In this document: positions 9,521-33,728 of the stretch, piece by piece | Position numbering within the stretch: position 1 is the stretch's first letter | How the letters are laid out: each line of letters opens with the position of its first letter | Assembly: GCA_020059915.1 (NCBI GenBank) | Contig: JAGVBB010000007.1 | Coordinates: 2,873-66,872 of the forward strand | Length of the DNA stretch: 64,000 bases | From: Minisyncoccota bacterium | GTDB lineage: Bacteria; Patescibacteriota; Minisyncoccia; UBA6257; GWB1-50-10 | Direction of reading: 5' to 3' | The notes under the pieces: model-generated | Told to the model about the DNA's origin: nothing | The model's database searches: none | What the model saw: the letters and a program-made list of their open reading frames with translations, nothing else | Translations under genes and position numbers: made by a program

Positions 9521-9604
9521 GCCTGAGTGTCGGAATTGGTAGACGACCACGACTCAAAATCGTGTGGCCTCACGGCCGTGTGGGTTCGAGTCCCACCTCA
9601 GGCA
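9521..9604 (+). tRNA. tRNA-Leu (anticodon CAA), type II long variable arm
   Basis: acceptor GCCTGAG/CTCAGGC+A, anticodon stem CACGA/TCGTG with loop CTCAAAA, long variable arm, T-arm GTGGG TTCGAGT CCCAC; no encoded CCA. Confidence 0.85.
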
Positions 9605-19718: not shown

Positions 19719-19995
19719 TGGTAAACAAATTATAATTTTTTAAATAACAAAAAACCACCCCAACGTATGAGGTAGTTTTTTTTCAAGTACTTTCTTGGTC
19801 GTCCCACCGAACATACTAAACCAATTAGACATTTAATATATTCGTAGCCGAGACATATTTGAGGTTTATCGGCTAACACCTCTGGCAGTATGCATCATTC
19901 CCTCTGCGTTGATTTCCTCGATTACTCGAATGATCGCGTGCAGCGAACTGTTATACAAATCCGGTTTTTTAAACTTAAAAGTTTATACGACTTAA

Positions 19996-21490
<1,495 letters not shown>

Positions 21491-25925: not shown

Positions 25926-25996
25926 CGGACTGTACAGGATTCGAACCCATATTACCACCTCTAAGGGTAGTGTCCTAACCATTAGACGAACAGTCC
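25926..25996 (-). tRNA. tRNA, Glu-like scaffold, anticodon uncertain (apparent 6-nt anticodon loop CTTAGA)
   Basis: reverse complement GGACTGT TC GTCT AATGGTTA GGAC A CTACC CTTAGA GGTGG TAAT ATGGG TTCGAAT CCTGT ACAGTCC G; clean cloverleaf except the anticodon loop is one nt short by eye. Confidence 0.6.
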
Positions 25997-26004
25997 AAAT
26001 GGTG

Positions 26005-26077
26005 TGGGGTGGGATGGATACGATCCACCAGCCTTCGCCTTGCAAGGGCGACGCTCTCCCAATTGAGCTACCACCCC
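26005..26077 (-). tRNA. tRNA-Ala (anticodon TGC)
   Basis: reverse complement GGGGTGG TA GCTC AATTGGGA GAGC G TCGCC CTTGCAA GGCGA ... CCACCCC A; normal 7-nt loop. Confidence 0.8.
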
Positions 26078-26164
26078 AACAATTTGTGCGGGCAACATAA
26101 TTACATAGAATACGTCCAACCAATACATATTCCACAAACATAATTATGAAGCCCGACTTTTTCG

Positions 26165-26236
26165 AGCAGGAGGAAGGACTCGAACCTCCGACCGACACCT
26201 GGCAAGGTGATCCTCTACCAACTGAGCTACTCCCGC
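26165..26236 (-). tRNA. tRNA-Gly (anticodon GCC), anticodon arm one nt shorter than canonical by eye
   Basis: reverse complement GCGGGAGTAGCTCAGTTGGTAGAGGATCACCTTGCCAGGTGTCGGTCGGAGGTTCGAGTCCTTCCTCCTGCT; closely parallels bacterial tRNA-Gly(GCC) but loop reads TTGCCA(G) rather than TTGCCAA. Confidence 0.65.
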
Positions 26237-27296: not shown

Positions 27297-27821
27297 TTAT
27301 TGAATCGCTTGATTGTCTGTGGTAGTAAATTTTACTAAGATCACTGCATTTGATGCATTCATAAGTGGTACATCAATGGTGTGATCAAACTTTTTGTCTC
27401 CATCATCATTATGAAGTACGGCAAAATATGTTTTCTCTGGTTCTGTATCACGAAGCAACTCTACCATCCCAGAATTTTCTCCCTTAGGAAACCATGCAGC
27501 TCCAAGAATATTTCCTGGCGTCCCATCAACATCATCATGGATTGCCACCCACCCTGGGTTTTGAAGTTTTACTGATACAATAGAAACGGTTGAACTATTC
27601 TTTTGATCATTGACTTCCAATGTATTGATACCCGTTGATACATCTTTGTTTTCGACTACCTCGTCTATATTATTTTTGTAATCTGGCGCTTCTGCGGGCT
27701 TTGTAAACAACCACGCGGCACCAAATCCTATAAGAAAGAAAACGATTGCAGTAACTATGATTTTTTTACTGCTTATTTCCTTCTCATTTTGTTCTTCCTT
27801 CATATATGCTGAATGTAACAT
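27297..27821 (-). CDS. hypothetical membrane-anchored protein
   Basis: single TM near N-terminus (IIVTAIVFFLIGFGAAWLF) then soluble beta-rich domain. Confidence 0.5.
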   Translation of the reverse strand: MLHSAYMKEEQNEKEISSKKIIVTAIVFFLIGFGAAWLFTKPAEAPDYKNNIDEVVENKDVSTGINTLEVNDQKNSSTVSIVSVKLQNPGWVAIHDDVDGTPGNILGAAWFPKGENSGMVELLRDTEPEKTYFAVLHNDDGDKKFDHTIDVPLMNASNAVILVKFTTTDNQAIQ

Positions 27822-27920
27822 ATTATATTTATATCGTGCAATCTTGACATACAATAAAAAATTTATAGAAATAAACACCCCCATACGGTATACGTATGGG
27901 GGTGTTGTTAAAAGAGATTA

Positions 27921-28477: not shown

Positions 28478-29248
28478 CTATTTCGTCTGTTGTTCCTCAA
28501 TATCAGAAATTGCCCTTCTATAGGCACAAAAATCACACTCAGGAGATGCCTGGGGAATCACATCACTCATTAAACACTTTTTTATTTCATGCAATATTGG
28601 TTCAATCCATTCCGTCTTTCCCTCATATGGAATGAGATGTATATCAAATTCTAGTTTTCCATCAAATGCATTTCGATCTGTTTTCCCATTACAATAGACA
28701 AAGTATCCTATCTCTTGAACACTGAAACCATTTTTTCGAAATAACCATTGATATAGTTCCATTTGCCGTTTATATGCAATCTGCCATTCAGCATCAAGAG
28801 ATATCTCTCCATCTTTTGATGTTGATTTATAATCGACAATAATTAATTCCTTTGTTTTATTATCAATCCAAACATCATCAACACCACCCTGAATAACAAG
28901 GTTAACAGGTTCAAAAAAATACTTTATTCCTCCACGCAATGCATCCCTCCATTCATCCATACGTGAATCATTAAATGGAATAGCATCAAGTCTATATGAT
29001 TTCATCAATGGATGTGTTTCCCCATGTATACGATGAATATCAAACTCTTTTTTTAGTAGTGTATCTACAGCGCTATTCAAATTAAATGGAAATGAAGGTG
29101 GTTGTCCAACACCAAGTCGTCTATCAAAATAAAAACATCGGGGACACTTCAAAAATCCATCAATTTTTGATCTACTTAATGAAAATGGTTCTTGTGATTG
29201 AGGATTAAAAATATTTCGCGTTCTCTTTGGTTTGTAGTACTGACTCAT
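28478..29248 (-). CDS. PD-(D/E)XK nuclease family protein (Cas4/RecB-nuclease-like, Cys-flanked)
   Basis: core IVDYKST (D...D/EYK) plus N-terminal CPRCFY and C-terminal CDFCAY cysteine pairs as in Cas4/AddB-type Fe-S nucleases. Confidence 0.65.
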   Translation of the reverse strand: MSQYYKPKRTRNIFNPQSQEPFSLSRSKIDGFLKCPRCFYFDRRLGVGQPPSFPFNLNSAVDTLLKKEFDIHRIHGETHPLMKSYRLDAIPFNDSRMDEWRDALRGGIKYFFEPVNLVIQGGVDDVWIDNKTKELIIVDYKSTSKDGEISLDAEWQIAYKRQMELYQWLFRKNGFSVQEIGYFVYCNGKTDRNAFDGKLEFDIHLIPYEGKTEWIEPILHEIKKCLMSDVIPQASPECDFCAYRRAISDIEEQQTK

Positions 29249-32692: not shown

Positions 32693-32756
32693 TACTATGG
32701 TTTAGTATATCTTATAACTATGTATTACGCATTAAAACATACTATATAATGAATAT

Positions 32757-33728
32757 ATGAGGCGAGCGTCACAAACAGTACTGTATACTTCGTTATTTTT
32801 TATTTGTTTTGGCTATTTTACATATGCTGCAACAAACATCAGTGGAACCCCAAATGAATATCTTGCCTGGGATGACTCTTCGGGTTGGTGGGATCTATAT
32901 ATAAATAATACCGTTGAGGTGCAGGGTTCAAAGATGGTTGGATATGCATCGTCAACGATTGGCGAGATATCTTTTGATTGTGGAACATCTCCAAGTGGAA
33001 ACATATGTCACATCTCACAATATGGCATTTGTAATGGAATAGGATCAACAAAAGATGCAAGCGGAGGTTGTAATGATGCAACCGCAACGGGAGATCTTGT
33101 TGGTTATGCGTGGAATGATGTACTTGGATGGATAAGTTTTAGTTGTCACAACACAGAAGGTGTGGGGACATGCACGAACGACTGGGGAGTAAAAATAAAT
33201 AAAACTAATGGAGATTTTGAGGGGTATGCATGGAGTGATATTGGTGGATGGATAAGTTTTAACTGTGCAAACTCTGGATCATCATGCACGCCATACACGT
33301 ACAAAGTTAATACATCATGGAGATCAACATCAACGATAGCACTTCTTGACTCTGCGGTTATTGATACGCAATCCGTTGGTGGGGCAACATTAAACAGTAT
33401 CACATGGAACGGAACGAGTAATGCGAATGGAACAGGGCAACAAACCTATGTTGATTTCCAAATCGCGGTTTCCAATAGTTCTAGTGGGCCGTGGGATTTT
33501 ATTGGTCCATCCGGAACCGGCGCCGACTATTATAGTGCTTCCTGTGAAGCAAGTTTTAAGGGTGGAGTAAACGCGGGAGGGAATGCTCCAAAAGACACAC
33601 CAATCTGTATAGATCCAGCACAAGTAAAAAATATGAGGTATATTCGATATCGTGTACGTCTCCGTAGTAATTTGCTCCAAACCGACACGCCAAGAATAGA
33701 TGATATCATCTTGAATTGGAGTAAATAA
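32757..33728 (+). CDS. secreted protein with three Trp-rich repeats (GYAWxD/NxxGWISFxC) and many Cys
   Basis: signal peptide MRRASQTVLYTSLFFICFGYFTYAA; repeats GYASSTIGEISFDC, GYAWNDVLGWISFSC, GYAWSDIGGWISFNC; GC content visibly higher than flanks. Confidence 0.7.
   Translation: MRRASQTVLYTSLFFICFGYFTYAATNISGTPNEYLAWDDSSGWWDLYINNTVEVQGSKMVGYASSTIGEISFDCGTSPSGNICHISQYGICNGIGSTKDASGGCNDATATGDLVGYAWNDVLGWISFSCHNTEGVGTCTNDWGVKINKTNGDFEGYAWSDIGGWISFNCANSGSSCTPYTYKVNTSWRSTSTIALLDSAVIDTQSVGGATLNSITWNGTSNANGTGQQTYVDFQIAVSNSSSGPWDFIGPSGTGADYYSASCEASFKGGVNAGGNAPKDTPICIDPAQVKNMRYIRYRVRLRSNLLQTDTPRIDDIILNWSK

Follow-up and report, generated by a model that had tools for sequence, protein, structure and literature searches.

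A Sec-exported protein of Parcubacteria/Paceibacteria as a probable stand-alone head module of type IV pili

Type IV pili are the best-supported host-attachment organelle in Patescibacteria, also called CPR (candidate phyla radiation), and to our knowledge the pilus tip components of this group outside Saccharibacteria are essentially unknown. In a described system of another pilus class, CofB is a tip-located initiator of pilus assembly. CofB is built from a pilin, a β-repeat domain, and a β-sandwich domain (PMC8179133). According to modelling, bulky modules grafted on pilins fit only at the pilus tip (PMC8179133), and complexes of minor pilins at the tip prime pilus assembly and bear adhesins, PilC/PilY1 among them (PMC13533445). 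In Saccharibacteria, PilX1 (a jelly roll) and PilX2 (a propeller) have been proposed as host-glycan-binding tip adhesins (PMC11623550). Here we compare with these systems a gene, denoted X, from a 64,000-nucleotide stretch of contig JAGVBB010000007.1 of a Minisyncoccota bacterium (assembly GCA_020059915.1); this whole stretch is referred to as the window.

The reading that we favor, with a probability of roughly 0.6, is that X represents a conserved accessory 'head' module of the type IV pili of Parcubacteria/Paceibacteria, in a stand-alone form exported by Sec. X would thus be a pilus-tip accessory, or a modular-pilin head in split form: a component of known kind, made of an unannotated module family. 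This reading is carried by orthologues located in a pilus operon, by fusions with a minor pilin, by extracellular partner domains, and by the predicted fold. The operon was observed in ~24 distant loci (40%–46% identity), where X is part of the co-directional gene order pilin-(membrane protein)-PilB-PilC-minorA-minorB-X-p144-PilM/N-pth-lepB-hisS (minorA and minorB are minor pilins A and B). Pfam assigned T2SSE (3e-117), T2SSF (2e-48), three N_methyl pilins, and PilN in this operon; the N-terminus of the p144 protein is pilin-like but without Glu5. Among 84 orthologous loci, X is co-located with pilB, pilC, pilM, or pilin genes in 36, with a pilus gene at most three genes away. A minor pilin lies directly upstream of X on the same strand in 19 of the 84 loci, and p144 is adjacent to X in divergent orientation in 12. 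An intermediate arrangement was also found, in which the block p144-PilM/N-pth-lepB-hisS is still beside X yet inverted, which suggests an inversion that had a breakpoint next to the gene. The clade of the window has lost even the adjacency of X to the p144-PilM/N block. In the inverted arrangement, a conserved 144–160-aa (amino acid) bitopic protein with the motif PSYYAVYLRTGDLYFGELS and no annotation is encoded between X and p144, as gene −1 relative to X (loci L023, L026, L027, L030, L041, L086, and L035).

Natural fusions were sought among the 51 members of the representative set that are 400 aa or longer. In 36 of them, the X module follows in frame on a complete minor pilin B (profile positions 2–197); one other representative has minor pilin A as its fusion partner. 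All 36 carry the prepilin motif G-Q-S-L-I-E without variation, including G13, Q14, and E18. Minor pilin B proteins of the split type terminate ("QTDWSGG...GSIxI") precisely at the position of the linker in the fusions, and in split operons the minorB and X genes abut or overlap. The fusion P0160 fills the slot of both genes in the order PilB-PilC-minorA-[fusion]-p142-PilM-pth-lepB-hisS; in the locus of the fused relative, a 515-aa protein weakly matched PilM_2. The AlphaFold 2 (AF2) model of P0142, a relative of P0160, comprises a pilin α1 helix (residues 14–70) and a β-sheet, followed by the X module, with a mean confidence score (pLDDT) of 80. The identity between fused and split modules rises to 63%; with X of the window it is ~48%. 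On a crude tree the two kinds of module interleave, and clustering by UPGMA (unweighted pair group method with arithmetic mean) requires at least 17 changes of state, a rough figure. By Rosetta-stone reasoning, these natural fusions and the shared operon slot suggest that X and minor pilin B act in physical association.

The product of X and its parts are located in the window as follows.

32757..33728, forward strand: gene X, a secreted 323-aa protein, the putative stand-alone form of the pilus head module
32757..32828, forward strand: predicted Sec signal peptide, residues 1–24, with cleavage between TYA and ATNIS
32859..32903, forward strand: repeat unit R0, residues 35–49, YLAWDDSSGWWDLYI, a degenerate hairpin (predicted strands 35–39 and 43–46)
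32940..32984, forward strand: repeat unit R1, residues 62–76, GYASSTIGEISFDCG, followed by the C75–C84 loop; G62, A64, D74, and C75 invariant (predicted strands 63–66 and 69–72)
33102..33146, forward strand: repeat unit R2, residues 116–130, GYAWNDVLGWISFSC; G116, W119, D121, G124, W125, and S127 invariant (predicted strands 113–120 and 124–127)
33222..33266, forward strand: repeat unit R3, residues 156–170, GYAWSDIGGWISFNC; G156, W159, D161, G164, W165, and F168 invariant
33315..33725, forward strand: C-terminal β-sandwich, residues ~187–323, with the C263–C284 pair and the motif R294-Y295-x-x-Y298 (predicted strands within residues 194–322)

An earlier note on this DNA, made from the sequence alone, had described a secreted, Cys-rich, 323-residue protein, and each of these features was borne out. 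The open reading frame is real and begins with ATG. Its N-terminus has a basic n-region (MRRAS), a hydrophobic core of ~17 residues, and a T-Y-A↓A site. The cleavage pattern A-x-A↓x-T-N-I-S is conserved in the alignment of 50 full-length homologues, to which the statements on conservation refer; this N-terminus is therefore predicted to be a Sec/signal peptidase I signal peptide. A helix spans residues 2–18 of this region in the AF2 model. X contains 11 Cys residues, one in the signal peptide and ten in the mature protein. The pairs 75–84 and 263–284 are invariant, and the pairs 92–105 and 170–177 are each present or lost jointly among homologues, which suggests that they form local disulfides of an extracytoplasmic protein. 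The first mature residues after the predicted cleavage, T26-N27-I28-S29 (32832–32843), are near-invariant as T-N-I-S/N in the split proteins and persist as N-I-D/S in the pilin-fused forms. This stretch may form a strand with a structural or a docking function, or it may be an N-x-S sequon.

All three Trp-rich modules reported by the earlier note were found, at residues 62, 116, and 156, but the note had missed a fourth, degenerate unit (R0). R0 is conserved as strongly as the other units, with A37, W38, D40, G43, and W44 retained in 44–50 of the 50 homologues. The G/W/D/G/W positions of the repeat units are invariant, and R2 and R3 are identical at 11 of 15 positions, a match that exceeds the best of 300 shuffled versions of the sequence (8 identities). 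X of the window has all the residues that are invariant in the family.

Structure prediction, one of the checks that the earlier note had proposed, yielded a confident fold: the AF2 model from the 50-sequence alignment had a pLDDT of 91.3 and a predicted template modelling (TM) score (pTM) of 0.78. It consists of the signal helix, an N-terminal hairpin domain (residues ~26–186) with four β-hairpin units and Cys-containing loops, and the C-terminal β-sandwich. The hairpin domain had no structural counterpart in PDB or BFVD when searched with Foldseek. The C-terminal domain locally resembled CBM6 and CBM32 carbohydrate-binding modules (CBM) and other galactose-binding-like domains, with Foldseek probabilities of 0.97–1.0, E~1e-2, and TM scores of 0.42–0.45. 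This likeness suggests a CBM6/CBM32-like jelly roll, whose membership in these families is not proven. Small viral jelly rolls resembled the same domain at TM scores of 0.54–0.67. Whole-chain matches to phage tail-hub and birnavirus VP2 proteins were dismissed because their root-mean-square deviation was 17–33 Å. In the monomer model, strand 313–322 is an integral part of the protein's own jelly roll (pLDDT >93).

The X module is an unannotated domain family by sequence. No Pfam family was found for X even at E ≤ 10, nor for the 50 homologues at E ≤ 1, and searches of PDB by sequence and by profile returned nothing. Pfam and NCBIfam, applied to X, to the 50 homologues, and to the long relatives, likewise assigned no family to the module. 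These results agree with the earlier note, which had not recognized the repeat family; no known characterized domain was matched. The only hit, to TIGR04118, a family of Cys-rich, AC3_0185-type peptides modified by radical SAM enzymes and belonging to the ribosomally synthesized and post-translationally modified peptides, was rejected. It scored 15.3 bits against a cut-off of 35 bits (E = 0.015) and covered 32 residues of the folded 323-aa protein, whereas the family comprises short precursor peptides. Full-text literature searches with motif strings of X (GWISF and others) and keyword searches found nothing relevant, and no description of the family was met in the literature examined.

X has 503 close full-length homologues, nearly all 290–335 aa long and labelled hypothetical, from the Jorgensen-, Brenner-, Lipton-, Wolfe-, and Harrisonbacteria and other Parcubacteria/Paceibacteria. 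The best matches are Parcubacteria/Paceibacterota proteins that are 77%–98% identical to X. When 1.84 billion cluster representatives were searched with a profile, 7,395 proteins were recovered at E ≤ 1e-3, and 257 of them reached E ≤ 1e-30. In the long relatives other than the pilin fusions, LamG, DUF2341, IPT/TIG, F5/8C, or PKD domains precede the X module; 14 long relatives have Sec-type N-termini and adhesin-type domains, and no pilin. The C-terminal β-sandwich sits at the extreme C-terminus in all relatives, and in multidomain relatives the X module always ends there. Some architectures depart from the common one: the hairpin domain is duplicated in P0121 and P0122, LamG/DUF2341 is inserted between R1 and R2 of the pilin-fused module in P0150, and P0195 lacks the jelly roll and has Ig and PKD domains after at least nine hairpin units.

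Among the described systems, X is most readily compared with PilC/PilY1 (IPR008707, Neisseria_PilC). Like them, it is a Sec-type non-pilin whose orthologous genes lie among minor pilins, and in its family a C-terminal module is conserved and the adhesion domains N-terminal to it vary (PMC13533445 and PMC8179133). By analogy, its proposed role at the tip would also be similar, with priming or capping combined with adhesion. PilY1/PilC and the TM7x proteins PilX1/PilX2 are Sec-type or non-PilD tip proteins and so provide a precedent for a Sec-exported X. However, X and PilC/PilY1 have no sequence or fold relation: X has hairpin repeats and a jelly roll instead of a seven-bladed propeller, is small (323 aa), retains its C-terminal strand within its own fold, and often has a pilin-fused module, which PilY1 does not. 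The PilY1/Neisseria_PilC propeller was not matched in X by Pfam at E ≤ 10, and no PilY1 was among the listed Foldseek PDB matches. TM7x PilX1 resembles X, as far as its description goes, in having a lectin-like jelly roll and is a candidate adhesin of one member of the Patescibacteria.

The fused relatives have the architecture of modular pilins, i.e., an N-terminal pilin, a linker, and a bulky grafted module whose expected place is the pilus tip, as in PilB (vWA) and PilC (lectin) of S. sanguinis; unlike in known modular pilins, the grafted module is an unannotated family. They show the pilin features of invariant G13, Q14, and E18 and a helix at residues 14–70. X of the window, in contrast, has no pilin module but a Sec signal peptide, and corresponds to the grafted module alone. 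It gave no Pfam match to N_methyl (PF07963), its N-terminal helix is only ~17 residues long and is followed by the AxA site, and the class III prepilin motif G↓(F/M/Q)xxxE was found neither in X nor elsewhere in the window. The domain order of the fused relatives (pilin, β-repeat, β-sandwich) is also that of CofB/TcpB of type IVb pili. X differs from these in pilus class and in being a separate Sec-exported protein, and CofB/TcpB did not match X among the listed Foldseek PDB matches. The C-terminal domain resembles CBM6/CBM32 and F5/8 type C domains locally (7d2a, 1gmm, 6tr3, and 4zxe), but the similarity is weak, no Pfam match was obtained, and no sugar-binding residues were identified. We take the 'RYxRY ... 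DDIILNW' ending of X to resemble the last two strands of discoidin/CBM32 domains.

A mechanism can be proposed on this basis. X would be exported by Sec, its signal peptide cleaved, and the mature protein oxidized and stabilized by disulfides. Mature X would then join the minor-pilin complex that primes and caps the pilus, most likely by binding minor pilin B in trans, and would be displayed at the pilus tip. There, the Trp-rich hairpins and the CBM-like jelly roll may bind a ligand, most plausibly a glycan on the surface of the host or substrate. Alternatively, the domains of X may provide a conserved base to which longer relatives have added adhesion domains that vary (LamG, TIG, discoidin, and PKD). 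In the lineage of the window, rearrangements would have moved X from the pilus operon to its present position before cysS-dnaB-recR. The earlier note had proposed a surface or adhesin-like protein or a binding module. Secretion, the extracellular partner domains, and the CBM-like fold agree with that proposal, which had missed the connection to type IV pili.

Several points weigh against this reading of X. No pilin, PilB, PilC, or PilM gene is present within the window, and the neighbors of X are housekeeping genes, so the link of this particular X to pili comes from its orthology (40%–48% identity) and from fusions in other lineages. Binding of the split protein to a pilin is likewise a proposal, with indirect support from the in-frame fusions to minor pilin B in 36 of the 51 long relatives. 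The C-terminal domain resembles CBMs weakly (E~1e-2, TM~0.45), and the ligand binding proposed above is purely putative. The C-terminal strand lies within the protein's own jelly roll, so strand donation of the PilY1 type, in which the last β-strand of the protein completes the sheet of a PilK-type minor pilin, is not evident from the model. The pTM of the fusion model P0142 is just 0.57, a value that does not fix its domain arrangement, and the strong sequence conservation of X suits a structural or priming role better than that of a host-specific adhesin.

A less likely possibility is that in this lineage X acts at the cell surface as a secreted lectin or adhesin, free-standing and independent of pili, the operon and the fusions of other lineages being its history. 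Its predicted signal peptide, its CBM-like jelly roll (in the model), the 14 Sec-type relatives with adhesin-type domains and no pilin, the lack of pilus genes in the window, and the position of X beside cysS-dnaB-recR in 52 of 71 loci would all fit such a protein. We nevertheless consider this unlikely, because X of the window retains all family-invariant residues, fused and split modules are closely related, and p144-PilM/N is often still adjacent in rearranged loci; moreover, a soluble, unanchored secreted protein requires a partner to remain on the cell. Less likely still is that the module anchors variable N-terminal domains to the wall or S-layer of a monoderm envelope, in the manner of choline-binding or GW repeats. 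The module does always stand C-terminally behind variable domains, and Trp/Gly-rich β-hairpin repeats recall cell-wall-binding repeats, which is a lead only. However, no CW_binding or other anchoring family was matched even at E ≤ 10 (CW_binding_1, a profile of a ~20-aa aromatic hairpin, matched neither X at E ≤ 10 nor the 50 homologues at E ≤ 1), X genes are located among minor pilins, and a fusion to pilins, which are extracted from the membrane into the filament, is hard to reconcile with anchoring.

The suggestion of the earlier note that X was acquired laterally, made from its elevated G+C content (GC), has very little left in its favor. The excess itself is real but modest: GC is 0.417 in X versus 0.373 in the window (z = 1.7), which places X fourth among 59 genes. 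The excess falls entirely on codon position 2 (0.519, z = 3.8, rank 1), because Gly, Ala, Ser, and Thr make up 39.2% of the protein (rank 1 of 59 genes, mean 24.8%), and is thus a reflection of amino-acid composition. The GC of codon position 3 (0.312, z = 0.3) and the codon-usage distance (z = −0.3, i.e., average) are native, so that lateral acquisition is not supported by either. The distribution of homologues, which the earlier note had proposed as a further check of lateral origin, also contradicts it: synteny is kept across Jorgensen-, Brenner-, Lipton-, Wolfe-, and Harrisonbacteria genomes. In related loci with enough downstream sequence, the order X-cysS-dnaB-recR occurs in 52 of 71, and X is therefore apparently an old, vertically inherited resident. 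Given the operon and the fusions in related bacteria, X is most likely a vertically inherited pilus-tip binding module rather than a horizontally acquired adhesin. A content of Gly, Ala, Ser, and Thr of 39% is typical of exposed pilus proteins as judged in PMC11623550, and the GC excess of such a protein can imitate the signal of horizontal transfer.

In the window, X is preceded by the divergent genes xseA and a major facilitator superfamily transporter and followed by cysS, dnaB, recR, gpsA, and nth; no further X-like repeats occur within its 64 kb. A TATAAT hexamer (region 32744–32757) ends 7 nt upstream of the start codon of X, and no Shine-Dalgarno sequence precedes this codon, so the transcript may be leaderless. 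A promoter-like site (TTGTAA-18-TATAAT) and no terminator were found between X and cysS. The promoter scan around X did not exceed the shuffled expectation, and the scan for promoters and terminators was uninformative.

In many Jorgensenbacteria-like genomes, the divergent flank of X (genes −1 and −2 in loci L003, L004, L005, L009–L016, L031, L034, and L044) encodes a 172–185-aa bitopic protein with a faint Cupredoxin_1 match and secreted proteins of 500–1600 aa, whose mature N-termini start with A↓F(T/I)GP(G/S). This flank looks like a recurrent, unannotated surface-protein cluster. Small four-helix-bundle genes (23S_rRNA_IVP/bAvd-like, PF05635/PF22296) adjoin X or pilus genes at the following positions of other loci.

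L003 and L004, 8969–9361: four-helix-bundle gene
L005, 6911–7288: four-helix-bundle gene
L016, 4964–5317: four-helix-bundle gene

Such a domain is also annotated inside one pilin-X fusion (P0309). These genes may be accessory to diversity-generating retroelements that lie close to surface genes.

Farther upstream of xseA, the window contains genes for a DUF7282 protein (27297–27884, reverse strand) and a PD-(D/E)XK/Cas4-like nuclease (28478–29248, reverse strand). A gene for such a nuclease also adjoins X in the distant loci L048, L052, L055, and L059. A complete bacterial 16S rRNA gene (19995–21488, reverse strand) accounts for the GC peak at 20–22 kb, and no 23S or 5S match was found anywhere in the window; the rRNA genes are therefore unlinked. 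A cluster of three tRNA genes (25926–26236, reverse strand) and one isolated tRNA gene (9521–9604, forward strand) are also present.

X ties a large unannotated family (7,395 cluster representatives) to the minor-pilin set of the pilus through operon position and repeated fusions. It is a concrete candidate for a tip or adhesion module of Parcubacteria pili and represents a new domain family to annotate, and the natural pair of split and fused forms suits interaction and structural tests. We tentatively suggest, as a possibility that falls short of an even chance, that in Patescibacteria the X module is what PilY1/PilC is elsewhere, a domain that docks at the tip and caps it. Its previously undescribed fold would combine four Trp-rich β-hairpins with a CBM-like jelly roll. 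The module would act either in trans, as a Sec-exported protein such as that of the window, or in cis, as part of a fusion with minor pilin B, and would have lineage-specific adhesion domains grafted onto it. If this is true, X would be a core determinant of both pilus assembly and host recognition in Parcubacteria.
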